Part shown: positions 3,047 to 27,055 of the stretch, piece by piece
Numbering within the stretch: the first letter of the stretch is position 1
How the letters are laid out: every line of letters starts with the position of its first letter
Source of the DNA: Escherichia coli
GTDB taxonomy: Bacteria; Pseudomonadota; Gammaproteobacteria; Enterobacterales; Enterobacteriaceae
Assembly (NCBI RefSeq): GCF_016026235.1
Contig: NZ_CP065613.1
Reading direction: 5' to 3' (one strand)
DNA: 64,000 bases
Position numbers and translations under genes: made by a program
Notes under the pieces: generated by a model
Database searches by the model: none
What the model was told of the DNA's origin: nothing
The model's input: only the letters and a program-made list of their open reading frames with translations

Positions 3047-3790
3047 TTATTCTCCCGCCCAGTGGCAGGCGTCGCGTAGCGGCGCAATAACCCGTGCCAG
3101 CCCGTCAATGTTAAAGGTCAGCTTTCCGGCGGCGTTGTCTGCGCCGGTATCCACCGTCAGCGTTTTTGCGCCGAACAGTTGCTTAATTTCATCAATCCCG
3201 GATAACCCCCTGCTGGACTCCAGCAGGGTGCCGTTCTCGCGCACAAACCAGTGGCTGCGCAGTGCCCGTGTGTCGGCATTCAGGGTGACGGCGATATCGT
3301 GGACATCCAGAGGGTGCATCAGCGCCACCTGCATCCGGGTAATATTGTCCACGCAACTGAACATCAGCACCGGGCGTGGCGGAACATGGCCGATAGCCGG
3401 GGTGGTTATCACCACCGTCGGGCGTTCCCCCGGCACCTGCGTCACCAGCAGCTCCGTGGTGTTGCCCTGGCGGCGTTTTTCCTGCTCTGTGGCGCGGGTC
3501 CAGGCTTCGCCCACAAAGCTGGCTTTGACCAGTGCGGCGTTGCCGAAGCCGGGCTGTTCCGGCGCAAGAATGCGGTCATAACAGTCAAGCCGCTCCAGCG
3601 CCGCAGACTCCCGCCGACAGGACTGCATGGCCTGTAACGTAGCTGTCGCATCCGGCGGGGTCGTGGTGGCGACGGCGACCGCCACACCGGCCATTGACGA
3701 TGTTTCTGCGGGCGCGGCACTGGCCGGTAAGCCCGCCATCAGGCCCGCGATAAACCATCCTGTCTGCCGGAAAACGCGCAACCTGCTCAT
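3047..3790 (-). CDS. T6SS-associated secreted protein (VasI/DUF2094-like), signal peptide
   Basis: 247 aa ORF with N-terminal signal-like segment ending in AAPA; sits between clpV and tssA as in other T6SS clusters. Confidence 0.45.
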   Translation of the reverse strand: MSRLRVFRQTGWFIAGLMAGLPASAAPAETSSMAGVAVAVATTTPPDATATLQAMQSCRRESAALERLDCYDRILAPEQPGFGNAALVKASFVGEAWTRATEQEKRRQGNTTELLVTQVPGERPTVVITTPAIGHVPPRPVLMFSCVDNITRMQVALMHPLDVHDIAVTLNADTRALRSHWFVRENGTLLESSRGLSGIDEIKQLFGAKTLTVDTGADNAAGKLTFNIDGLARVIAPLRDACHWAGE

Positions 3791-6519
3791 AAAACCATTT
3801 CATCCTCTGTGACGGACTCGTCGTCCTGAGCATCTTCCACGTCTGCCGTGAATGCACCGTCTGCCGCCGACAGGCGGATGCGGGCAATCGCCGTGTTAGC
3901 CGCCATTTTCTGCAACAGCAGCAGCGAGAGCGGCGGCAGCATGTCGCCGTCGATGACCGATTCGAGCATCCTCGCGCCGTTTTCCGCGCGGGTGACGCGG
4001 CTCATGATTTCGTCCGTCACTTCCGGCTCAATAACCACCTCCGCGCCAAAGCGGCTGCGCAGCACGTTATCCAGGCGGGCCAGTTTCCCGGCGATGATGG
4101 TGGCGAGCGTCTCTTTCGACAGCGGCAGGTAAGGCACCACCTCCATTCGCGCAAGCAGGGCAGGTTTAAAGAAGTCAGCCAGCACCGGATAGAGGGCTTC
4201 CTGCATGGTCTCCGGGTCATCCGCGTGTTCGACAATCATCTGGTAACCGAGGTTGGAGGTGAGGAAGAAGACGATATTCTTACAGTCAATCAGGCGGCCT
4301 TCGCCGTCTGCCATCTCGCCCTTGTCGAACGCCTGGTAGAACAGGTTGAGCACATCCGGGTGCGCTTTTTCCACTTCATCGAGCAGTACCACCGAGTAGG
4401 GTTTCTGGCGGATGGCTTCAGTCAGTACGCCGCCTTCGCCATAGCCGACATAGCCCGGAGGGGAGCCAATCAGCCGCGAGACGGTGTGCTTCTCCTGGAA
4501 CTCGGACATATTGATGGTGGTGAGGTACTGGCGACCGCCGTAGAGCAGCTCTGCCAGTTGCAGGACGGTTTCGGTTTTACCCACGCCGCTGGGGCCAGCC
4601 AGCAGGAACGCGCCGAGCGGGCGTCCCGGACGGCGCAGGTCGGCGCGTGCGGTCAGCAGGTGTTTATGCAGGCTGGCAATTGCCAGGTCCTGGCCTTTGA
4701 TGGTGTCACCAAGCCACTTCGGCAGGTCGGTGATGACCGACATTTCATTCTGCGACAGGCGGTTAAGCGGTACGCCGGTCCATTCGGCAATCACCGCCGC
4801 AATCTGTTTTTTATCGACGTGCGGGGAAACCAGCAACCGGTCGTTATGCAGGGCGTCCAGTTCGGCAGTGAGTTGTACTAGCTGCTGCACCGGGGAAACT
4901 GTTTCAGCGGTCTCTTCCGGCTGTGTACTGCCCGCATCATCAGCCGGTGCGGTACCGGTATTATCCTGTTCTGACTCTGGCGGCGTATCCACTACGGCAT
5001 CTGTGTCCTCTGTCACACCCAGCAATAGCTGGCGCAGCGCGATAATTTCCCGTACCAGCGTCTGCTGCTGGTGCCAGGCCGCTTCCAGTTCATCCAGCGC
5101 CGTCAGCGTTTCATCGTACTGCACCAGCACCTCAGTCATCCGTGAAGTGTCGGTACGCAGCCCGATGCGAAGCTCGCGCTCAAGCTGGCGAATTTCCGCC
5201 TCCTGCTGGTGGCTCAGGGTGGTCAGCGCCGAGATTTGCTTCGGTGGCGATGACAGGTTGATTGCCACACGTGCGCAGGCCGTATCCAGCACATCAATGG
5301 CTTTGTCTGGCAACTGACGCCCGGAGAGATAACGCTCACTTAATGTCGCAGCGGCCTGCAAGGCGTCATCATCAATCAGCACACCGTGAGACTGTTCATA
5401 GACCGAAGAGAGGCCGCGCAGAATAATGGTGGCTTCGGCAGCACTGGGTTCACTGACCTTCACCAACTGGAAGCGACGCGACAGGGCGGCGTCTTTCTCG
5501 AAGTATTTTTTGTACTCGCTCCAGGTGGTGGCGGCGATGGTTTTCAGCTCGCCACGCGCCAGTGCCGGTTTGAGCAGGTTGGAGATATCCAGCCCGCCCT
5601 GCTGGTTGCCCGCGCCAATCAGGGTATGCGCTTCGTCGATAAACAGAATGACCGGCACCGGAGAGGAAATGACCTCCGCCATCAGCCCCTTGAAACGTTT
5701 TTCAAACTCACCTTTCACCGATGCTCCGGCCTGCAATGCGCCCAGGTCAAGAGTCATGATATCGGTGTTTTTCAGCTTATCCGGCACCTGCCCTGCCACG
5801 ATGCGCAGCGCCAGCCCTTCAATCAGCGCGCTTTTGCCCACGCCGGCTTCGCCCACCACCACCGGATTGTTTTTACGGCGGCGGCAGAGAATGTCGATCA
5901 TCAGGTCGATTTCGTGGTCGCGGCACAGTACCGGGTCAAGTTTTCCGTTACGGGCGTCTGCGGTCATGTTTTTGGCGTAGCGGGCCAGCAGGGTGTCGCT
6001 GGTTTCCGTTGCGCGGGGCGTTTGCCCGCCAGCCAGATCCACGGATTCGGCGGATTCTTTTGTCCATGCGGCGAAATCCTGCTGTAACTGGTCGCGGTTT
6101 ATGGCCGTCAGCAGACGGGCAGCAGCGGGTGGAATATAGCGCAGCGGTGAATGCAACAGAGTAAGCAGCAGGACGCCGCTGCGCAGTTCGCTGTGCTGCA
6201 TCTGGGCCGAGGCCAGCAGCCATGACTCCTTGAGCCATTCGACCAGCATCGGGGAGAAGCTGGGATAGCCATCGGCGGAACGTCCGCCGGGATAACTCTC
6301 CACGGTCAGCGCCTGGCGTAAATCCTCCGCACTGATGCCTGTGCGTTCGGCAATCACCCTTACGTCGTTGCGCGGGATTGCCAGCATCTGTAACAGCACA
6401 TGGGCAACGGTGATCTCACTGGCCTGCTGGCTCATACACTCCGAGGCAGCCATTTCCAGCGCCTGTTTTGCAAAGGGGTTAAGCCGCTTTACCAGCGTGG
6501 CTAAATCAATCTGGATCAT
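3787..6519 (-). CDS. clpV: ClpV (TssH) AAA+ ATPase
   Basis: 910 aa; two AAA+ modules with Walker A GEAGVGKS and GPSGVGKT; Clp N-domain-like start. Confidence 0.9.
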   Translation of the reverse strand: MIQIDLATLVKRLNPFAKQALEMAASECMSQQASEITVAHVLLQMLAIPRNDVRVIAERTGISAEDLRQALTVESYPGGRSADGYPSFSPMLVEWLKESWLLASAQMQHSELRSGVLLLTLLHSPLRYIPPAAARLLTAINRDQLQQDFAAWTKESAESVDLAGGQTPRATETSDTLLARYAKNMTADARNGKLDPVLCRDHEIDLMIDILCRRRKNNPVVVGEAGVGKSALIEGLALRIVAGQVPDKLKNTDIMTLDLGALQAGASVKGEFEKRFKGLMAEVISSPVPVILFIDEAHTLIGAGNQQGGLDISNLLKPALARGELKTIAATTWSEYKKYFEKDAALSRRFQLVKVSEPSAAEATIILRGLSSVYEQSHGVLIDDDALQAAATLSERYLSGRQLPDKAIDVLDTACARVAINLSSPPKQISALTTLSHQQEAEIRQLERELRIGLRTDTSRMTEVLVQYDETLTALDELEAAWHQQQTLVREIIALRQLLLGVTEDTDAVVDTPPESEQDNTGTAPADDAGSTQPEETAETVSPVQQLVQLTAELDALHNDRLLVSPHVDKKQIAAVIAEWTGVPLNRLSQNEMSVITDLPKWLGDTIKGQDLAIASLHKHLLTARADLRRPGRPLGAFLLAGPSGVGKTETVLQLAELLYGGRQYLTTINMSEFQEKHTVSRLIGSPPGYVGYGEGGVLTEAIRQKPYSVVLLDEVEKAHPDVLNLFYQAFDKGEMADGEGRLIDCKNIVFFLTSNLGYQMIVEHADDPETMQEALYPVLADFFKPALLARMEVVPYLPLSKETLATIIAGKLARLDNVLRSRFGAEVVIEPEVTDEIMSRVTRAENGARMLESVIDGDMLPPLSLLLLQKMAANTAIARIRLSAADGAFTADVEDAQDDESVTEDEMVL

Positions 6520-17215: not shown

Positions 17216-19615
17216 ATGTCCTTAAAAGGTCTGCGCTTTACGCTGGAGGCTGACGGCCAGGAGCCGGACACCTTTGCAGTGGTGAATTTCAGGTTAATCC
17301 AGAACCAGTCTTATCCGTTTGTGATGAGTGTGGATGTTGCCAGCGACTCTTTTATGCAGACGGCGGAGATGCTGCTGGAGAAGAAGGCGACGCTGACCAT
17401 CTGGCAGGGCGTCATCCCGCTGCGTTATGTTACCGGCGTGGTGGCGGGCTTTGGCATGCAGGAGAACAATGGCTGGCAGATGCGTTACCACCTGCGTATT
17501 GAGCCGCCGTTATGGCGGTGCGGGCTGCGGCAGAATTTCCGTATCTTCCAGCAGCAGGATATCCGGACGATATCGGCCACGTTACTGAACGAGAACGGCG
17601 TCACGGAGTGGACGCCGCTGTTTTATGAGGACCATCCGGCGCGGGAGTTCTGTGTGCAGTACGGGGAGTCGGACCTGGCGTTTCTGTCCCGGCTGTGGGC
17701 GGAGGAGGGAATTTTCTTCTTTGAGCGGTTTGCGGCGGACAGTCCGGAGCAGAAGCTGACGCTGTGCGACGATGTGGCGGGGCTGTCACAGGCGGGAGAG
17801 CTTCCGTTTAACCCGGACACATCGGCAGGAGCGGAGACAGAGTGTGTCAGTATGTTCCGTTATGAGGCGTATGTCCGCCCGTCGTCGGTGCAGAGCCAGG
17901 ATTACACGTTTAAGGTGCCGGACTGGCCGGGGATGTATGAGCAGCAGGGTGAGAACCTGAACGGACAGCTGGCGCAGTACGAGATATTTGATTATCCGGG
18001 AAGGTTCAAGGATGAGCAGCACGGCAAGGATTTCACGCTGTACCAGATGGAGAGCCTGCGCAGTGATGCGGAAAAGGCCACAGGGCAGAGTAATTCGCCG
18101 AGGCTGTGGCCGGGAACGCGGTTTACGCTGACGGGGCATCCGCAGAAGATGCTGAACCGTGAATGGCAGGTGGTACAGAGCATTCTGTCAGGAAACCAGC
18201 CGCAGGCGCTGCACGGCAGCCAGGGAAAGGGAACCACACTGGGAAATCAGTTAGAGGTGATACCGGCGGACCGGACGTGGCGTCCACGGCTGCAAAGCAA
18301 ACCGAAGGTGGACGGGCCACAGAGCGCCATTGTCACCGGGCCTGCGGGAGAGGAAATCTTCTGCGATGAACATGGCCGGGTACGGGTGAAGTTCCACTGG
18401 GACCGTTATCACGGGATGACGGAGGCGAGTTCATGCTGGGTGCGGGTATCGCAGGCGTGGGCGGGGCCGGGGTTTGGTAACCTGGCGATACCGCGGGTGG
18501 GCCAGGAGGTGATTGTTGATTTTCTGAACGGAGACCCGGACCAGCCGCTGGTCATGGGCCGGACGCACCATGAGGACAACCGTTCGCCGGGCGACCTGCC
18601 GGGAACGAAGACGCAGATGACCATCCGGTCGAAGACCTATAAAGGAAGCGGATTTAACGAACTGCGCTTCGAGGACGCCACCAGTAATGAGCAGGTGTAT
18701 ATCCATGCGCAGAAGAACATGGATACGGAGGTGCTCAACGACCGGACAACGGATGTGAAACATGACCATACGGAAACCATCGGTAACGACCAGAAGATAA
18801 CGGTGGTGAAGGGTCAGACGGTTCAGGTCGGTACAAAAAAAGAGGGGGGCCACGACCAGAGTATCACGGTGGCGAACGACCGGCGTATCACGGTACGTAA
18901 TGACCAGACTCTGAAGGTGACGAATGACCGGACGGTGAGCGTGAGTCACGATGACGGTCTGTACGTCAGAAACGACCGTAAAGTGACGGTGGAAGGGAAG
19001 CAGGAGCATAAGACGACGGGGAACCATATCAGTCTGGTGGAGGGGAAACACAGCCTGGTGGTGAAGGGGGACCTGGCGGAGAAGGTGAGTGGCGCGCTGG
19101 GGATAAAAGTGGACGGGGATATCGTGCTGGAGAGCAGCAGCCGGATAAGCCTGAAGGTGGGTGGCTCGTTTATCGTCATTCAGCCGGGCGGAGTGGATAT
19201 TGCCGGGCCGAAGATAAACCTGAACGGTGGGGGCAGTGCGGGGACACCGGTGGGGACGATGCAGCCGGCGGTGCTGGAGGCTCCGGAGGATGAGAGCAGT
19301 GATGATGGCAGTGATGACTCCGGAGAGGATAGTGGCAATCCCGCAGGGAGTGACGGAGGAGGTGATGGCGGTGACGATGAAGATGATCCTGAAAAATATA
19401 CCCTCCAGTTCCATTTTACGGACGATGACGGGATACCGTATTCAGAGACGCAGTATATTGCCTTTTTTGAGGATGGCACACAGACGCGTGGTGAAACAGA
19501 CAGAGAGGGATATACAGAAATATTTTATACAGATACAGCACAGGAAATTAAAGTCCAATTGTTATTTTCGGATGCTTTTTATATTGAGCCGGAGGGGCAT
19601 TATGGCAGGGAATAA
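17216..19615 (+). CDS. vgrG: VgrG (TssI) spike protein with acidic C-terminal extension
   Basis: 799 aa; gp27/gp5-like body, repeated RNDxT/V-type beta-helix motifs, C-terminal acidic linker (DDGSDDSGED...GGDDEDD) plus about 70 aa tail. Confidence 0.9.
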   Translation: MSLKGLRFTLEADGQEPDTFAVVNFRLIQNQSYPFVMSVDVASDSFMQTAEMLLEKKATLTIWQGVIPLRYVTGVVAGFGMQENNGWQMRYHLRIEPPLWRCGLRQNFRIFQQQDIRTISATLLNENGVTEWTPLFYEDHPAREFCVQYGESDLAFLSRLWAEEGIFFFERFAADSPEQKLTLCDDVAGLSQAGELPFNPDTSAGAETECVSMFRYEAYVRPSSVQSQDYTFKVPDWPGMYEQQGENLNGQLAQYEIFDYPGRFKDEQHGKDFTLYQMESLRSDAEKATGQSNSPRLWPGTRFTLTGHPQKMLNREWQVVQSILSGNQPQALHGSQGKGTTLGNQLEVIPADRTWRPRLQSKPKVDGPQSAIVTGPAGEEIFCDEHGRVRVKFHWDRYHGMTEASSCWVRVSQAWAGPGFGNLAIPRVGQEVIVDFLNGDPDQPLVMGRTHHEDNRSPGDLPGTKTQMTIRSKTYKGSGFNELRFEDATSNEQVYIHAQKNMDTEVLNDRTTDVKHDHTETIGNDQKITVVKGQTVQVGTKKEGGHDQSITVANDRRITVRNDQTLKVTNDRTVSVSHDDGLYVRNDRKVTVEGKQEHKTTGNHISLVEGKHSLVVKGDLAEKVSGALGIKVDGDIVLESSSRISLKVGGSFIVIQPGGVDIAGPKINLNGGGSAGTPVGTMQPAVLEAPEDESSDDGSDDSGEDSGNPAGSDGGGDGGDDEDDPEKYTLQFHFTDDDGIPYSETQYIAFFEDGTQTRGETDREGYTEIFYTDTAQEIKVQLLFSDAFYIEPEGHYGRE

Positions 19616-20405
19616 TAATACTAGTGGGACTTCACAACCCGAGTCGCAAGTATGTGTAGTACCGCAAAAAATTACAAATAAATTTAAAATAATGATGAGT
19701 AAGGCTTGTAAAGCACAGAAAATGGTTTTATTGAAAAGAGCAGATGATATTATGTCATGGGAGGGGGAACAACAACGAGATTTTATTAAAGTTTTTGGCC
19801 TTAAAGGCGAGGACATTATAAAAATCAGAAAGGTTGGGGAAGATACTGGGAAACGAATGCAAGCGAGACTATTCATAATGGATGGCATCAGACGAATAAT
19901 GACGATTGCAAATGGTTTGACGATCGAAAGCTATAAAGATTATACGAACTGCAATGAATTTGCTGCTTTTATTAGTCCACATCTTGATCCTCCTTACATT
20001 GTAAATATCGGAGCGCATTTTGAATACAGACATGGTATAAAACAGTCGGTTACAGGTAGAGACTCTCATGTAAGTACACTTTGCCATGAAATGTCCCATA
20101 TATTTTGGTATTGGGGTGACAATCAAAAAGGTGGTATGTGGACTCAGGATTATACGGGTATTAATAAGTTCGCAACAAGTAATAAGGATGAAGTTAGCTA
20201 TGAGAAACATGTTTCAGTGGCTAATGATCTGGTTACATTGCGTAAAGATCAGTTATTTGAGAATGCATATAATGTTGAAAGATATTTTTATATAAAATTA
20301 AATGATGAAGATATTGAAGCTCAAGATGAGAATATGTTAGCAAAAAAAGTAGAGGATAAAATAAAAGAGATAGAAAAATGTTTTGATGAGTTGATGGGGA
20401 AATAA
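19602..20405 (+). CDS. Putative VgrG-associated effector, zincin-like metallopeptidase candidate (HExxH)
   Basis: ATG at 19602 overlaps vgrG stop by 14 nt (track ORF 19227..20405 begins inside vgrG). AT-rich; motif STLCHEMSHIFWYWGD...WTQDYTG (HExxH plus a downstream Asp). Confidence 0.45.
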   Translation: MAGNNNTSGTSQPESQVCVVPQKITNKFKIMMSKACKAQKMVLLKRADDIMSWEGEQQRDFIKVFGLKGEDIIKIRKVGEDTGKRMQARLFIMDGIRRIMTIANGLTIESYKDYTNCNEFAAFISPHLDPPYIVNIGAHFEYRHGIKQSVTGRDSHVSTLCHEMSHIFWYWGDNQKGGMWTQDYTGINKFATSNKDEVSYEKHVSVANDLVTLRKDQLFENAYNVERYFYIKLNDEDIEAQDENMLAKKVEDKIKEIEKCFDELMGK

Positions 20406-20468
20406 GATGAAGAGGTTGGCTTTCTATAATCTAAATTATGTTGTACTGATGGTTTTTTTCTTTGTTTT

Positions 20469-21155
20469 TTGCCATTATCTATTGCAATTGCAATAGATAA
20501 TGAGAATCTTTTTGTAAAAAAATACAGATTCGGTTTTGAACGAAGAAGTGACAATGGGAAACCAATTATTTATCTTAGCCATAATTTAGCGCCAGAGGAA
20601 AATATAAGTAATGAATTAACAAATGATGTTGTTGTTAAATTGGTGGTTAAGCCACATGCTGAAAATATTTTAGCTACTATAACTTTTTATAACAGTAGTA
20701 CTAAATCGTATTTTCTCCCCAGAATATATTATCCAAAGAACTTCCAAAAAGGAAATGGAGATGTATTTGATGCTTTGTGTGATGACGAATTCTTGATTAC
20801 ATCAGGAAATATTAGCTTAGACTATCTAGGAGGCTTTTGTCCCTTTGAGCTTGATTTGAATTTGAGCCGATGGGTGGAAATTACGGCAGGTAAAAAAATA
20901 TCTTTTGATGTAAAATTGAATGATATGCATTCATTTCTCCCCAGTTTAAATAATTATCATATAAAAACATTAAACTACAAACTTGTTAGGAGAAAATGGT
21001 TTGTATTAAAATCAATTAATGAAACATTCCTCTCTATTTTGATGAAAAGATACTCATGTAATGAATATGATTTTAGAGCTATATCATTTAGTGGAGAGGG
21101 ATGTGATAATTATGAATTTGATAAAAATACGTTTTTTTTGTTAATCAAATATTAG
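20469..21155 (+). CDS. Hypothetical protein, immunity candidate for the upstream effector
   Basis: AT-rich 228 aa ORF directly downstream; begins with TTG in the track; a 29-codon ATG-initiated hydrophobic peptide (20407..20496) lies in another frame just upstream across a T-run. Confidence 0.3.
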   Translation: MPLSIAIAIDNENLFVKKYRFGFERRSDNGKPIIYLSHNLAPEENISNELTNDVVVKLVVKPHAENILATITFYNSSTKSYFLPRIYYPKNFQKGNGDVFDALCDDEFLITSGNISLDYLGGFCPFELDLNLSRWVEITAGKKISFDVKLNDMHSFLPSLNNYHIKTLNYKLVRRKWFVLKSINETFLSILMKRYSCNEYDFRAISFSGEGCDNYEFDKNTFFLLIKY

Positions 21156-21394
21156 ATAAAGATGATGAGCAACATTCTGTTCATATTAGGTCTAATGAAT
21201 TTTCCATCAATATCGATGGAAGCTTGGTAAAGCAACCTTATTGATTAAAATGTATCGCAGGTTTTATTTTCTGTAATGCTGGTGCATGTGCGTAAATATT
21301 TCTTAAGAGCCGGAAACACCTCTTCCGCCTTTATCGACGATAAACCTACCGCCAGAACCGGTGATGCCATTGACTGCGGTGGCGTGGTTAAAGG

Positions 21395-21732
21395 TGGCGG
21401 GCGATGTGGTGCTGGAGAGCAGCAGCCGGATAAGCCTGAAGGTGGGCGGTTCGTTTGTGGTCATCCATTCAGGGGGCGTGGACATCGTCGGGCCGAAAAT
21501 CAATCTCAATAGCGGCGGTAGTCCGGGAACGCCGGTGCCGACGCTGCAACCGGCGGTTCTGAAAGCGCTGGCAGATGATAAAAGTTTAGCGGCTGAGCAA
21601 AATGATAGTAATGCATCGTCCGATCAGAATGATAACAACGATGAGGGTGAGGAAGCGCCAGAAAAATCGGTGTGTAAGGAGTGCCTGAAAAGGGCGCAAG
21701 AAGCCGCCGCCGTTTTTGCGCCTCGTGGATAA
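21395..21732 (+). pseudogene. vgrG 3-prime fragment (orphan VgrG C-terminal region)
   Basis: 21395-21560 is near-identical at DNA and protein level to vgrG 19103-19270 (GDVVLESSSRISLKVGGSFVVI...GPKINLN); upstream sequence is unrelated to vgrG; distinct C-terminal tail. Confidence 0.7.
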
Positions 21733-21738
21733 GGGAGA

Positions 21739-22509
21739 ATGACAATGATAACAGTATCGCCACACGCTACCGATCAAGACAAATATATTATCTGGCTGAA
21801 GCAAGCTGAATCATTCTGTTCTGCCGCTGGTTTGGATTACATAGATGTGCTTGTTGACCAGGCTGGAACCGACCAACCTTTGCAAAATGATATGCTTCAT
21901 CTGTGGCCAGCCATTCACTGGTATGCCCTGTTTGAAGGAACGCCTGAAGCTGAGACGATGGAGTATTCCCCTGTAGTGTTACGCCTGTACTTTGCGCTCA
22001 GTAGCCATCGCAAATTTCTGGCACAACTGATGGCGTCATTTGCTGATACGCCGCGTCTTACTTTGTTGATATCCCCTCTTACATTCGACCTGCTGGGGCG
22101 GCATCTTCAGGTATTGTCACAGGTTCAGTGGGAAGAACAGACCGGATTGCTGCGTTACTATGATAATCGGGTGTTCCCTTTACTGTTCACACATGTTTTG
22201 ACTAACGAGCAGCAGGCGACATTTACTGATATTGCGTTGTTCTGGAGCTGGTTAGACCGTGATGGTGAGATTAACTGGAAATCAGGAAGTTTTTCACCAG
22301 AACGCAGGCTTACTGACAACCCGGAGATGAATCGGGTGGATGATGTACAGGTGGGATTGATGGGCTGTATCTGCGACGCTGAAGTCCTGATGAAGGAGAA
22401 AGCAGTCAGTGAACTCAGTCAGGAAAGCTATTTTGCCCACTGTCTTGATATTGCTTTCAGAGCCAATGACGCGAAATATTTCGGAGCTTTGCGGGACTTC
22501 GAAGGATAA
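21739..22509 (+). CDS. DUF4123-like T6SS effector adaptor (Tap/Tec-type)
   Basis: 256 aa immediately after the vgrG fragment (RBS AAGGGAG); size and position typical of DUF4123 adaptors. Confidence 0.6.
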   Translation: MTMITVSPHATDQDKYIIWLKQAESFCSAAGLDYIDVLVDQAGTDQPLQNDMLHLWPAIHWYALFEGTPEAETMEYSPVVLRLYFALSSHRKFLAQLMASFADTPRLTLLISPLTFDLLGRHLQVLSQVQWEEQTGLLRYYDNRVFPLLFTHVLTNEQQATFTDIALFWSWLDRDGEINWKSGSFSPERRLTDNPEMNRVDDVQVGLMGCICDAEVLMKEKAVSELSQESYFAHCLDIAFRANDAKYFGALRDFEG

Positions 22510-22822: not shown

Positions 22823-23377
22823 ATGTCCAGCAAAATAAGGAAAAGTATCAGTATGAGAGCGATTTTCAAATGTTATTCTCTAATGATTTTATTTGCAGTA
22901 TCAGGCTGTTCAATGGCAAAAAATAGCGGTGATTACACTGCTGTGGATATTAATGGGATAAATCATACGGATAAGGATATAAATTATATACACATCAATG
23001 GTTACGGCGGACCAAATATTGGCCCATTCGGAGACGGTGGAAGATATTGTTGCGTTATGCTGCCAGATAAGTGGCATTCTGGATTAAAAGCCCGAGTTGA
23101 GTGGGAGGTTGATCCAAATACAGCTCCTCTGCCTCCAGGCTATAAGGACAGGGAGAAATTTGAAGCATGGAAGAAAGTTGCGCTAAACAGTTTTAGAAAA
23201 TATTCAACAATTGTTGATATCCCGGAATATGATGCTGAGCTTTGTGGCCTGACCGTTCATTTTCTAACGTGTAATCAGATAAAAGTGACAACCGTCTGCC
23301 AGAAATATGGTACACCAAATTATCCTATCAAAGAACCCCGCGAGATGAAGGAACCAGCAACATGTCCAGCAAAATAA
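22823..23377 (+). CDS. DUF3304-like lipoprotein, Tli1-type immunity candidate (copy a)
   Basis: 184 aa, signal peptide with lipobox VSGC; paralogous to the next gene; Cys-rich (RYCCVMLPDKWHSGLKARVEWEVDPN). Confidence 0.5.
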   Translation: MSSKIRKSISMRAIFKCYSLMILFAVSGCSMAKNSGDYTAVDINGINHTDKDINYIHINGYGGPNIGPFGDGGRYCCVMLPDKWHSGLKARVEWEVDPNTAPLPPGYKDREKFEAWKKVALNSFRKYSTIVDIPEYDAELCGLTVHFLTCNQIKVTTVCQKYGTPNYPIKEPREMKEPATCPAK

Positions 23378-23904
23378 GAAATGGAATGAATATAACAAAA
23401 GTAGTTAAAGGCTGTCTGGTATTAATTTTGATGGTGATTTCGGGTTGCTCAGCAGCTAATTACGACGATTATACTGCAGGTGATCTCCGGGCAATAAATC
23501 ATATTAAAGGTATCAGTATTAATTGGTTCACCGTAAATGGTTATCGGGTCCATGGTTTGGGCGGTGGATATTGCTGCATAATGTTACCAGAGAAGTGGCA
23601 TTCTGGATTAAAAGCCCGGATCGAGTGGGAAGTAGACCCGAACCCCCTTGAACCTATTGCAATGAAAAAAGAAGGTTTTGGCTATGAAGAAGATGCTTAT
23701 GCTAAACATGCTGCAAATTATCAAAAATATAAAGTAATTGTTGATATCCCGGAATACGGCGCTGAACGTTGTGGCCTGACCGTTCATTTTCTGCCGTGTA
23801 ATCAGATTAAAGTGACAACCGTCTGCGAGGGCTATGGCACACCGAATTATCCTATCAAAGAACCCCGCGAGATGAAGGAACCTGCAACATGTCCAGCAAA
23901 ATAA
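23362..23904 (+). CDS. DUF3304-like lipoprotein, Tli1-type immunity candidate (copy b)
   Basis: 180 aa paralog of 22823..23377; the 3-prime approx 130 bp are about 90 percent identical between the copies. Confidence 0.5.
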   Translation: MSSKIRNGMNITKVVKGCLVLILMVISGCSAANYDDYTAGDLRAINHIKGISINWFTVNGYRVHGLGGGYCCIMLPEKWHSGLKARIEWEVDPNPLEPIAMKKEGFGYEEDAYAKHAANYQKYKVIVDIPEYGAERCGLTVHFLPCNQIKVTTVCEGYGTPNYPIKEPREMKEPATCPAK

Positions 23905-25982
23905 GTGGTCTGGCTTTTCCGTGTTATGCCCCCCCGGTGTTCCCTGAAGATGGGCGATTAATATTATCTGAAGTGCAGGTAAACGCGAACTACCTAAAAC
24001 AAATCAATAAAACAGAGGAGCACAAAACCAACTGTAGTAAACAGGCTGGATTTAGAATTGGCTTTACGTGTAATCAAAGTCTGCATATTAGTCTGTTTTT
24101 TGATGGTACAAATAATAATGAATATAATGACACAAAAGTCTCTCATCCAACCAATATTGCGAAATTATTCCACACAAGTATCGAAGACCGTAATGCTGGG
24201 TATTTTTCCTATTACATACCTGGTGTAGGCACACCATTTCCCAAGATAGGTGAAATGGATTACAGCAACAGCGGACTGGAATTTGCCACCGGTGGTGAAG
24301 ACAGGATTAATTGGGCATTATTACGCCTCGTGGATGCTCTTAGCTATGCTATTGACCCTACCCAAAATGGGCTGAATGAGAAGGTGGCAAAAGAGCACAT
24401 TCCTGTCATGCGAGCTCACTGGCCGATGACTGGTGAAGTGAATCGTCGCAATGTGATTAACCCCTACCTGGAAAAATTACAGGGGCAGTTAGAACAAGCC
24501 AGTCCGCGCCTGCTAAACGTAAAGCTATTTATCTACGGATTTTCCCGTGGCGCAGCGGAAGCGCGAACCTTTGTTAACTGGTTGACTCAGTTAGCTTGCC
24601 CGCAGAGGCAACAGGTGATGCTGGCCGGTTTAGCTGTCAGTATTGAGTTTTTGGGGCTGCTGGATACCGTAGCTTCTGTGGGGGCGGCGCATGTTTTGCC
24701 GGGCGCTGCCGGTCATATGGGATGGGCCGATAGTACTCAGCAACTCCCTGATGAGCGGCACTTTCCCGGCCTGATTAAATGCTGTCGTCACTTCGTTGCC
24801 GCGCATGAGCAGCGGCTGTGCTTCCCGCTGGATTCAATCCGTCGTCCTGAAGGCAATTATCCTTTATATGCAGAGGAAGTGATCTATCCGGGGATGCACT
24901 CTGATGTCGGTGGTGGCTATCCCGTTTGCGATCAGGGGAAGTCCTGTGGAGGTCCAGATGAAATTCTCTCTCAAATTGCTCTGCATGATATGTATCTTGC
25001 GGCGTTTGATGAGGGCTCTCCATTATCAGTGCATCCTTTATTCATAACCAAAATGATAAAAGATATTTCACCATCAAGAGCTATGTCTGATTCATCAATT
25101 GCTGAATTTGTCATCGCTCCAATGTTGATTAAACGCTTCAACATCTGGCGTCAAGCGCTGCTGAACACCACCTTGCAGGGTACAGAAGAAATGATTGATA
25201 CGAGGGAAGGTTATCACTCCTATCAACTTGCCCAGGTTCTTGAAAGCGCAATTAGCGATCAGATCGGCTGGATCACCGCCTGGCGTATCGGTCGCTATGC
25301 GAATAACAGCCTTCTTGTGCAACCTTTTTATATTAAGGCGCCACAGCTGGATAAAGATGGACTTGATAAAGAGGCTAAAGCGCGTAAAGAACAAATGGAA
25401 AATATTGAAAAAGAACAGGCGAACAAGCAGAAAGGGAATGGCACACTTGATGAAAGTAATCAGGGCATTCCTATCCTTGACCCAACCAATGCTCAGTATC
25501 AGTTGCGAGAGGCAGCCCGAGAATTTCAGAGCGATTATAAAGGATGGACGCGCGATATTAACGGCAGCGTCATGGAGAAAGCCATTCAGATTCTTGTGGA
25601 TGTCATTCCTAAATATCCGGTGTATCTGATTAATGGCGATGATGAAGCAAAAGAATATCAGCAAATTAAGGCTATGGGAGACGGACTCTATCCACAATTT
25701 TTTATTGATTCACTGGGAACGGGAACGCGTACTCAGCCATGCGCTGAATTACTGGCTCTCTATGATGACCAGGTTCACGACTCCCGCGCCTGGTTTATGC
25801 AAAGTTCGCTGGGTGGACGCGAACCCTGGGGCGGTTATTTTCGCTACCGCATGATTTACTTCGGTGATGAGGCTAATAAAGAGCTGAAGCTAATCTCTGC
25901 AGATGGCAAAGTTGTTGGCGATCAGCCCACATCCAACCGGGTCATTTATTGGATGGAATCGAAAACGGTGAGCCGAGGTTAA
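23889..25982 (+). CDS. Tle1-like phospholipase effector (DUF2235 alpha/beta hydrolase)
   Basis: 697 aa; DUF2235 hallmark HISLFFDGTNNN and nucleophile elbow GFSRG; follows adaptor and lipoprotein genes. Confidence 0.7.
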   Translation: MSSKISGLAFPCYAPPVFPEDGRLILSEVQVNANYLKQINKTEEHKTNCSKQAGFRIGFTCNQSLHISLFFDGTNNNEYNDTKVSHPTNIAKLFHTSIEDRNAGYFSYYIPGVGTPFPKIGEMDYSNSGLEFATGGEDRINWALLRLVDALSYAIDPTQNGLNEKVAKEHIPVMRAHWPMTGEVNRRNVINPYLEKLQGQLEQASPRLLNVKLFIYGFSRGAAEARTFVNWLTQLACPQRQQVMLAGLAVSIEFLGLLDTVASVGAAHVLPGAAGHMGWADSTQQLPDERHFPGLIKCCRHFVAAHEQRLCFPLDSIRRPEGNYPLYAEEVIYPGMHSDVGGGYPVCDQGKSCGGPDEILSQIALHDMYLAAFDEGSPLSVHPLFITKMIKDISPSRAMSDSSIAEFVIAPMLIKRFNIWRQALLNTTLQGTEEMIDTREGYHSYQLAQVLESAISDQIGWITAWRIGRYANNSLLVQPFYIKAPQLDKDGLDKEAKARKEQMENIEKEQANKQKGNGTLDESNQGIPILDPTNAQYQLREAAREFQSDYKGWTRDINGSVMEKAIQILVDVIPKYPVYLINGDDEAKEYQQIKAMGDGLYPQFFIDSLGTGTRTQPCAELLALYDDQVHDSRAWFMQSSLGGREPWGGYFRYRMIYFGDEANKELKLISADGKVVGDQPTSNRVIYWMESKTVSRG

Positions 25983-26238: not shown

Positions 26239-27055
26239 ATGGAACTTAAAAAATTGATGGAACATATTTCTATTATCCCCGATTACAGGCAAGCCTGGAA
26301 AGTGGAACATAAATTGCAGATATTCTATCTGTTAACTATTTGCGCCGTTATTTCTGGTGCATAATGCTGGGAAGATATAGAGGATTTGGGGAAACACAAC
26401 CCGATTTTTTGAAGTGATATGGTGATTTTGAAAATGGTATTCCTGTTCACGATATCATTGCCAGAGTTGTATCCTGTATCAGTCCTGAAAAATTTCATGA
26501 GTGCTTTATTAACTGGATGCGTGACTGTCATTCTTCAGATGATAAAGACGTCATTACAATTGATGGAAAAACGCTCCGGCACTCTTATGATAAAAGTCGT
26601 CACAAGGGAGCAATTTATGTCATTAAAATCCGTCTTCATATTGTTTGCATGTCTCTGATGAATTTATTGATTTTACGTTTGAATGGAAAGGGCTGAAGAA
26701 ATTATGCATGGCAGTCTCATTTCGCTCAATAATAGCAGAACAAAAGAAAAATCCCGAAATGACGGTCAGATATTATAGCATTTCTGCTGATTTAACCGCA
26801 GAGAAGTTCGCCACAGCGAACCGAAATCACTGGCAAGTGGAGAATAAATTGCACTGGCATCTGGACGTGGTAATGAATAAAGACGACTTTATAATAAGAA
26901 GATGAAATGCAACAGAATTATTTTCAGGGATACGGAACATCGCTATTAATATTTCAAAGAAAGATAAGATACTCAAGGCCGGGGCAAGATGTAAGATGTG
27001 AAAGCAGCTGCGGACAGAGACTACCTCGCGTCAGTCCTTTCGGGGGCGGGCTTTC
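26239..27055 (+). pseudogene. H-repeat associated protein (ISAs1-family transposase) pseudogene with internal deletion and frameshifts
   Basis: Starts [26 protein letters not shown]..., then stop/frame changes; contains [28 protein letters not shown] and C-terminal [23 protein letters not shown]...[20 protein letters not shown]; about 320 bp of the middle are missing relative to the full-length family. Confidence 0.7.

Follow-up and report, generated by a model that had tools for sequence, protein, structure and literature searches.

One of the closest described counterparts of the locus analyzed here is found in the Sci-1 type VI secretion system (T6SS) of enteroaggregative Escherichia coli (EAEC), where the C-terminal transthyretin-like (TTR) domain of the spike protein VgrG1 (PDB 6SJL/6SK0), located after a DUF2345 beta-helix, binds the phospholipase Tle1 with no adaptor. 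In the work of Flaugnatti et al. 2016 and 2020, as it is summarized in PMC10433429, the binding of Tle1 is mediated by this TTR domain. A face of the TTR domain made of three strands pairs with a single short strand of the effector, as was reported for VgrG1 and Tle1 and predicted for VgrG17 and Tae17, and in VgrG17 the segment past the TTR domain threads into the effector (PMC11796386). In Pseudomonas aeruginosa VgrG2b, a DUF2345 region, a TTR domain and a metallopeptidase are contained in one chain (PMC6899460), and the C-terminal extension of P. aeruginosa VgrG4a, in which an unstructured linker leads to a short helix and a terminal strand, binds Tla1 and Tle1 (PMC13133936). The genes AKO63_2953-2956 of E. 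coli PAR encode VgrG, a protein described as DUF2345, an M35 protein and its immunity protein (Commun Biol 2023, PMC10673891). M35-PAR was toxic and was neutralized by the product of the next gene, and AKO63_2954, the "DUF2345" piece, co-precipitated with VgrG-PAR and with M35-PAR, which bound VgrG-PAR only via AKO63_2954 (PMC10673891). Here, we describe the C-terminal tail of a VgrG protein encoded in the T6SS-1 cluster of E. coli contig NZ_CP065613.1, a 64-kb stretch of which was analyzed and is further called the window.

The comparison suggests that the TTR tail of this VgrG, together with its acidic tether, likely docks the M35-like protease encoded by the adjoining gene, and that a vgrG fragment located further downstream keeps an older tail of the Tla1/Tle1 type. 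The window VgrG differs from EAEC VgrG1 in having no Pfam DUF2345 match, in the 34-residue acidic linker that precedes its TTR domain, and in its presumed M35-like cargo. Moreover, in the E. coli lineage of the window Tle1 appears to use a different tail and the Tla1 adaptor.

Folding of the VgrG tail into a TTR-like domain

The intact vgrG gene (17216-19615, plus strand) encodes a protein of 799 amino acids, in which the gp27/gp5 spike body is followed by a beta-helix extension, an acidic linker and the TTR-like tail. The protein matched the Pfam families Phage_GPD, Phage_base_V and Gp5_trimer_C, and the NCBIfam family TssI/VgrG. No match to DUF2345 (PF10106) was obtained in Pfam at E <= 0.01, hence the DUF2345 beta-helix that precedes the TTR domain in proteins of the EAEC VgrG1 type was not found in the window VgrG. 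The last rungs of the beta-helix (19104-19300, plus strand) form a stretch that recurs in the downstream fragment and contains, at about 19171, the left boundary of recombination.

A reading made earlier from the sequence only had noted a run of Asp, Glu, Gly and Ser after the beta-helix, and the run that it quoted, DDGSDDSGEDSGNPAGSDGGGDGGDDEDD, is indeed present in the intact protein. The linker EDESSDDGSDDSGEDSGNPAGSDGGGDGGDDEDD consists of 34 residues (amino acids 691-724; 19286-19387, plus strand), 91% of which are Asp, Glu, Gly or Ser, compared to 28% in the remaining protein; its net charge is -16, and the guanine-cytosine (GC) content of its DNA is 0.60. A repeat search did not detect a tandem repeat in the linker DNA, and so a slippage mechanism is not supported. 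In loci with the same TTR domain, the shortest linker had about 8 residues (EDENDDEN) and the longest about 50, and the length varied even within one effector subfamily (locus L017 compared to the window). Given this variation between loci with the same TTR domain and effector subfamily, the acidic linker probably acts as a passive tether and does not itself determine specificity.

Behind the linker there are 75 further residues (amino acids 725-799; 19388-19612), close to the approximately 70 counted in the sequence-only reading. AlphaFold2 prediction on nine aligned tails gave five beta-strands, with predicted local distance difference test (pLDDT) values of 84-95 for tail residues 1-60, while the values for the last 13 residues (63-75) were below 50. 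Hence, 62 of the 75 tail residues fold confidently as a TTR-like beta-sandwich (amino acids 725-786; 19388-19573, plus strand), the proposed docking site for the M35-like effector, and a disordered end follows (amino acids 787-799; 19574-19615, plus strand). The sandwich matches the Tle1-binding domain of EAEC VgrG1: its fold superposes on that TTR domain, and it is likewise located at the C-terminus, after the gp5 beta-helix. This result is contrary to a disordered tail, which the sequence-only reading had named as the outcome that would speak against docking. Twenty-two positions were invariant across the nine tails. Other structural neighbors of the domain were adhesin, pilin and complement immunoglobulin-like domains. 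No solved structure was found for VgrG beyond about residue 692, and Pfam searches with this tail and with the tail of the downstream fragment, each taken alone, gave no significant match.

When 1.84 billion representative sequences were searched with a profile of the tail, 214 proteins were matched at E <= 0.001. Ten of them were checked in Pfam, and seven were VgrG-type proteins, some with DUF2345, with the tail at the C-terminal end; the other three were a stand-alone DUF2345 protein and two unrelated PD40-repeat proteins. DUF2345 was present in the more distant TTR-bearing VgrGs P0086, P0117 and P0134. In a word-indexed protein search the tail retrieved short fragments only and the effector retrieved nine proteins; the full-length VgrGs with the window-type tail are probably hidden in 90% clusters represented by other tails. 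Two tandem TTR-like domains were observed in some VgrG tails, which were those of P0017 (locus L013, 1093-6611), P0018, P0020 and P0025. In L013, the tandem-TTR VgrG is followed by four genes, two of them with effector-like polar N-termini, and such tandem domains would fit one TTR domain per cargo.

Association of the TTR-like tail with an M35-like effector

The gene located directly downstream (19602-20405, plus strand) encodes a 267-residue M35/aspzincin-like metallopeptidase, the presumed cargo of the TTR tail. It starts at 19602, in a different frame, and overlaps vgrG, the stop codon of which is at 19613-19615, by 14 nt; its Shine-Dalgarno sequence GGAGG (19591-19595) is located inside the last tail codons of vgrG. 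The order of spike, TTR-like domain, HExxH peptidase and periplasmic immunity protein is shared with P. aeruginosa VgrG2b (PMC6899460), but in the window the peptidase has an open reading frame (ORF) of its own and is not a toxin fused to the spike in one frame, as in evolved VgrGs of the VgrG2b type. The possibility that the window locus is a split VgrG2b orthologue was rejected for the peptidase, since no VgrG2b chain was present among the sequence or fold matches of the effector, while the architectural analogy holds. No RNA structure beyond that of shuffled controls was detected at the overlap of the two genes (z = 0.40).

The HExxH motif of the effector reads HEMSH, and H162, E163 and H166 are invariant in 11 homologues. 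Another invariant residue, D183, is located 17 residues past HExxH in the sequence GGMWTQDYTG, which is non-canonical when compared to the GTxDxxYG-like motif of the third zinc ligand. The window effector scored 19.9 bits against Pfam Aspzincin_M35, which is under the gathering cutoff of 30, while 8 of the 11 homologues matched this family at E <= 0.01 (best 8e-11). The effector has the aspzincin fold, and its fold and sequence matches are true M35 aspzincins, although phmmer with the single effector sequence retrieved nothing meaningful from the PDB.

We collected 13 loci with tails at least 53% identical (53-85%) to the window tail. The loci found by the tail came from other E. coli, Escherichia sp., two Trabulsiella species and three Salmonella contigs, and those found by the effector came from Buttiauxella, another E. 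coli locus and two read-assembly contigs. In all 13, the gene directly after the TTR-tailed vgrG matched the M35-like profile, with E values from 5e-51 to 7e-132; eleven of these effectors had been part of the profile's own alignment, and the matches in L019 and L020 were independent. The overlap of the two genes was 8-14 nt in 9 of the 13 loci. In every one of the loci the M35-like effector was also followed by a homologous immunity gene, and the identity between the diverged effectors is 24-31%. The proteins encoded after more distant TTR tails are Ntox44, Tae4 or unknown ones, and M35-like proteins are absent among them. Because of these other toxins, the TTR fold as such appears to be a general cargo holder, while the gene neighborhoods tie the TTR subfamily of the window to M35-like cargo. 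The ends of the proteins past the TTR domain fall into classes (...EGHYGR(E), ...GGV(Y/N)E and others), which track the effector subfamilies. This match is partly forced by the overlapping start codon and ribosome-binding site of the effector gene, and the rest is confounded by shared descent.

The cognate immunity gene (20407-21155, plus strand) is frameshifted in its signal-peptide region. The window has seven T residues at 20453-20459, while strain 23CRST031 has eight, and the part coding for the signal peptide (MKRLAFYNLNYVVLMVFF...; 20407-20496) is out of frame with the ORF of the protein body (20469-21155). The same frameshift is present in strain FDAARGOS_943. The other genomes with the cassette differ in length here, and in eight of them the segment is 1-2 bases longer, which is compatible with eight T residues there. 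The frameshift may reflect a real pseudogene or a homopolymer sequencing error. Signal peptides are present in the homologous immunity proteins, which were found downstream of each of the M35-like effectors examined, and they suggest that the target is periplasmic.

Relation to the split VgrG of E. coli PAR

The PAR genes were compared to the window locus using the translated primer sequences of that study. AKO63_2954 ends with ...LGGVHE before its stop codon, and the M35 gene, which begins with ATGAGTAA, overlaps that stop and ends with ...ERYFEID before its own. These ends match the tail ending ...IDMI(L/W/E)GGV(N/Y)E, found in P0031, L003, L004, L006 and L021, and the ending ...NAYNIERYFE, which is invariant among the effectors. 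Hence, AKO63_2954, the "DUF2345" protein of PAR, very probably represents the C-terminus of a VgrG that was split off and has the same TTR-like domain at its end. Because the window VgrG keeps the association with M35 without a detectable DUF2345, the binding observed for PAR could reside in the TTR end rather than in DUF2345. The two loci are not identical in design: in PAR, VgrG is split into two ORFs and the tail belongs to the ...GGV(H/N/Y)E subclass, while the window tail belongs to the ...EGHYGRE subclass, and its effector subfamily is only about 30% identical to that paired with ...GGV(H/N/Y)E tails. A search with the PAR primers gave no match in the collected loci, and no strain named PAR was present among the matches listed (60 of 626).

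The orphan vgrG fragment and the Tla1/Tle1 route

Downstream of the immunity gene, an orphan 3' fragment of vgrG is located at 21386-21732 (plus strand), which is annotated in RefSeq as a partial VgrG without the N-terminus. The small ORF at 21361-21732 matched VgrG's C-terminal region with a BLASTP E value of 1e-33; the similarity was high over about 60 residues (IKVDGDIVLESS...PAVLEA), and then decayed. At the DNA level the homology begins at 21386-21395 and runs to about 21581, with about 80% identity to 19104-19300, and the sequences are unrelated beyond this point. The sharing of codons with the intact gene, and the difference between the two tails, had both been recognized in the sequence-only reading, but its estimate of 55 shared codons was too low, as the DNA alignment gives about 62-65. 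The private part of the fragment extends over 21582-21729. The acidic linker, which the sequence-only reading had listed as a feature of the intact VgrG, is not peculiar to it: a polar and acidic linker, ADDKSLAAEQNDSNASSDQNDNNDEGEEAPEK, with a net charge of about -9, is present in the fragment as well. This linker is followed by a helix-like end, ...EKSVCKECLKRAQEAAAVFAPRG (also ...CKECLKRAQEAAAVFAPRG). A tblastn search did not find a second copy of either tail elsewhere in the window.

The fragment is 96.6% identical in DNA sequence to the 3' end of an intact vgrG of strain L1PEag1, which encodes 743 amino acids and directly precedes a DUF4123 gene; the order of genes in loci of this type is hcp, vgrG, DUF4123, DUF3304 genes and Tle1. 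The junction between this tail and tla1 was found in 67 of 5426 E. coli genomes, typically once per genome, and it was contiguous in 66 of the 67. Also in the window the orphan tail is directly followed by genes of this kind. The DUF4123 gene (21739-22509, plus strand; Pfam DUF4123) encodes an adaptor for Tle1, and it matched the NCBIfam Tla1 equivalog with 218 bits at a cutoff of 200. Next, there are two genes of immunity lipoproteins of the Tli1a family (DUF3304; Tli1a_fam), which were identified by Pfam and NCBIfam (22823-23377 and 23362-23904, plus strand), and the gene of a 697-residue Tle1-family phospholipase effector (23889-25982, plus strand; Pfam T6SS_Tle1-like_cat and T6SS_Tle1-like_C), the putative cargo of the orphan-type tail.

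The best reading of these comparisons is that the two tails correspond to two loading routes, the TTR domain for M35 and the Tla1 adaptor for Tle1. Hence, the fold, the synteny and the tail-tla1 junction agree with the earlier proposal of two cargo specificities. On the other hand, docking of the DUF4123 protein by the intact tail, which had also been considered, is not supported, because this adaptor is associated with the other tail. The orphan tail has its model in the VgrG4a-Tla1-Tli1a-Tle1 module of P. aeruginosa (JBC 2026, PMC13133936). By eye, the orphan tail looks like the VgrG4a design and is compatible with its published description, although the window keeps only the last 115 or so codons of that VgrG, with the docking site off any spike. 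The fragment is best explained as the remains of the previous 3' end of vgrG, carrying an alternative docking tail.

In each of the six cassette strains listed, the Tla1/Tle1-type tail was observed in one place per record. Because the only copy of this tail that was found is the orphan fragment, Tle1 is possibly undeliverable in strains of the window type. The route of Tle1 onto the spike may thus have been lost there, while tla1, the two tli1a genes and tle1 stay intact ORFs.

Mosaic origin of the low-GC cassette

The nucleotide composition changes sharply inside vgrG. While the vgrG body and the linker have GC contents of 0.585 and 0.60, the values for the TTR domain, the M35 gene and the immunity gene are 0.41, 0.34 and 0.29, respectively. 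The resulting compositional island (19375-21320) starts with the TTR domain and ends with the immunity gene and its spacer, with GC values of 0.29-0.41 compared to 0.58-0.62 in the flanking vgrG sequences, and its boundary is the junction of the linker and the TTR domain. The drop of GC content at the TTR domain indicates that the docking domain belongs to the toxin cassette, and that the linker marks the seam. Composition and synteny show that the docking domain moves together with the effector and immunity genes, as one low-GC module joined to a spike body of a different lineage.

The origin of the spike body was further analyzed by comparison with related loci. Up to about position 19293, the DNA sequence of the window vgrG has 93% identity to the Tla1-type vgrG of L1PEag1, but only 77-86% to the vgrG genes of other TTR loci. 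A three-way DNA alignment showed that the window vgrG tracks the L1PEag1 gene to about 19170 and then diverges, while the fragment tracks L1PEag1 to the end. The fragment is preceded by, and fused to, what is left of a PAAR gene's 3' part (21321-21400, plus strand), which was recognized by DNA identity to PAAR genes. In strain MFDS1022581, the 3' part of PAAR genes shows 84-89% identity to the 80 nt of this remnant, 42 nt of which are 97.6% identical to PAAR genes in five other genomes. The remnant is joined out of frame to the vgrG fragment, with an overlap of about 15 nt between the two homologies that resembles a microhomology junction. The junction of the two points to a deletion within a former PAAR-vgrG pair. 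At the same locus, MFDS1022581 contains a tandem array with the order vgrG(TTR), M35-like, immunity, IS2, PAAR, vgrG, Tae4..., PAAR, M23..., vgrG, which ends with a vgrG fragment, DUF4123, Tli and Tle1. There are two options for the origin of the window arrangement: it could have arisen by recombination between vgrG paralogues with a deletion from PAAR into the last vgrG, or by insertion of the cassette through one homologous and one illegitimate crossover. Exchange at the 3' ends of vgrG genes has been described or proposed before (Wood et al., PMC6899460).

The exact cassette was present in 12 of the 5426 complete E. coli genomes. The region 17216-22509 is 100% identical to strain FDAARGOS_943, and about 98.5% identical to 11 other complete genomes. 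Upstream of the single intact vgrG, the cluster contains tssB and tssC on the minus strand, and hcp. Downstream of tle1, a short ORF (26645-26905) is located where related strains have an ISAs1-family transposase annotated as frameshifted in RefSeq, and this ORF probably marks the edge of the variable region. No promoters or terminators above shuffle expectation were detected in 19500-22000. Further decay of the locus was observed in the close relatives NZ_CP065615.1, NZ_AP027877.1 and NZ_AP045800.1. FDAARGOS_943 has an IS600 insertion of about 1.27 kb near the start of tla1, strain 2018-05-2CC also has IS600, and in 23CRST031 vgrG itself is annotated as frameshifted.

The arrangement resembles that of Rhs and CdiA polymorphic toxins, which are known to have orphan (displaced) C-terminal modules. 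As in these orphans, a new 3' end and its downstream genes are placed before the displaced old 3' end, which retains the shared stretch. In contrast to them, the displaced part is a docking tail and not a toxin domain, and its effector and immunity genes are full length.

Proposed docking of the effector and alternative explanations

We propose that the last 109 residues of VgrG function as an internal cargo adaptor, in which residues 691-724 would serve as the tether, the TTR sandwich of residues 725-786 would hold the M35/aspzincin-like protease encoded by the overlapping next gene, and residues 787-799 would form a disordered end. The most likely mode of binding would be edge-to-edge pairing of beta-strands between the TTR domain and a short strand near the N-terminus of the effector. 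Each spike trimer could then carry up to three protease molecules into the periplasm of the neighboring bacterium, while sister cells would be protected by the immunity protein, homologues of which have a signal peptide. The orphan-type tail would recruit the Tla1 adaptor and the Tle1 phospholipase in other strains of E. coli.

The tail and the effector were modeled as one fused chain, using a paired alignment of 12 loci. The effector domain was well folded in the model, and a beta-strand was formed by effector residues 7-13 (pLDDT about 64) within a disordered stretch of about 35 residues. In Foldseek, the fused model was best matched by strand-complemented SpyCatcher/SpyTag and CnaB2 domains; 66-90 columns were aligned, compared to the 60 residues of the TTR domain. 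The secondary structure and the fold matches hint, with moderate confidence, that the model fits strand complementation.

Proteins encoded right behind TTR-tailed VgrGs were observed to start with a polar low-complexity peptide regardless of their toxin domain (MAGNNNTSGTSQ..., VAGNTTKGKFS..., MGDPKDNKLNTSD...), at 19602-19690 in the window, 3645-4556 and 5751-6611 in L013, 3197-4060 in L014, 5938-6894 in L015 and 1120-1749 in L016, and several proteins downstream of TTR tails have an (E)QKIT-like motif 20-45 residues in. An N-terminal peptide of the type M-A/G-x-N-x-x-T-x-G was found in M35-like, Tae4, Ntox44 and unknown effectors downstream of TTR-tailed VgrGs. It is a tentative and rather doubtful idea that the TTR tail and the first 15 or so effector residues form a portable dock-and-tag pair by strand complementation, similarly as SpyCatcher and SpyTag. 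If true, such a pair would explain how one TTR scaffold is re-used for many toxins, and the N-terminal peptide would provide a new sequence marker by which T6SS cargo effectors are predicted, similar to MIX or FIX.

Several observations weigh against the proposed docking of the M35-like protease. The TTR-bearing proteins EAEC VgrG1 and P. aeruginosa VgrG2b and VgrG4b have DUF2345 before the TTR domain, while the window VgrG is without a Pfam DUF2345 match. The PAR study attributed the binding to DUF2345 and not to a TTR domain (PMC10673891), and our link to PAR goes through primer sequences only. The 13 loci are all enterobacterial and related by descent, and therefore their synteny could partly reflect the inheritance of one cassette. 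The strand pairing comes from the secondary structure and fold matches of the fused model, which are of moderate confidence only, and the binding of M35 in the window strain is one that we infer. Additionally, the frameshifted immunity gene raises doubt whether the module is active in the window.

It is also necessary to consider explanations in which the tail has another role. That the tail is a disordered low-complexity extension without docking function, with the M35-like protein loaded via PAAR, Hcp or the beta-helix, or not being a T6SS substrate at all, seems highly improbable. The linker and the last 13 residues are indeed of low complexity or predicted as disordered, the tail alone has no Pfam family match, and the cassette contains a PAAR gene remnant. 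However, most of the tail folds as a sandwich that matches the Tle1-binding domain of EAEC VgrG1, this domain is conserved at the invariant positions of the nine tails, and its subfamily always precedes an M35-like gene. Moreover, a homologous C-terminal piece, linked to the window tail through the PAR primers only, binds its M35 toxin in vitro (PMC10673891). The same TTR-like domain could alternatively bind the target-cell surface, PAAR or the baseplate, with the M35 synteny explained by co-inheritance of one mobile cassette. The adhesin, pilin and complement domains among its structural neighbors, the occurrence of TTR folds also in PAAR proteins (PMC6899460), and the possible descent of the enterobacterial loci from one cassette would fit this explanation, which we nevertheless consider improbable.

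A different question is whether the orphan fragment is a stored alternative tail, so that recombination across the direct repeat (19104-19300 and 21386-21581, about 190 nt) would delete the M35 cassette and restore a Tla1/Tle1-type VgrG, switching the cargo, as has been proposed for the orphan C-terminal modules of Rhs and CdiA. The repeat contains more than 40 identical bases in a row, both end states exist in E. coli, as 12 genomes have the cassette and others have the restored form, and tla1, tli1a and tle1 are still intact ORFs in the window; the exchange of vgrG 3' ends proposed by Wood et al. (PMC6899460) is also in line with it. On the other hand, recombination across the repeat would be a one-way deletion and not a reversible switch, the fragment is without an evident ribosome-binding site of its own, and the fused PAAR remnant points to decay by deletion in a former tandem vgrG array, similar to that in MFDS1022581. 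Hence, a stored tail appears unlikely, and we prefer to regard the fragment as the displaced remains of the earlier vgrG end, next to a TTR tail that likely docks the M35-like protease.

Implications for T6SS cargo loading

The window VgrG with an internal TTR-type cargo adaptor is of a known kind, a tidy but ordinary example, and it leaves the current understanding of T6SS cargo loading unchanged. Particular to the window are the absence of a detectable DUF2345, the long acidic tether, the cargo with a true M35/aspzincin fold, and the preservation of the displaced Tla1/Tle1 tail next door. For a family of M35-like antibacterial proteases seldom found in E. coli, the comparison indicates a likely route of delivery, and the binding credited to "DUF2345" in the PAR study may lie in the TTR-like end. 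Two leads follow from the data, which are a possible shared N-terminal docking peptide in unrelated effectors located after TTR tails, and the possible stranding of Tle1 in the cassette strains, where Tle1 may be undeliverable while its immunity genes are kept. The locus thus offers a natural example of a change of T6SS payload, in which a docking domain, a toxin and its immunity gene, arriving as a low-GC cassette, displace the previous docking tail.

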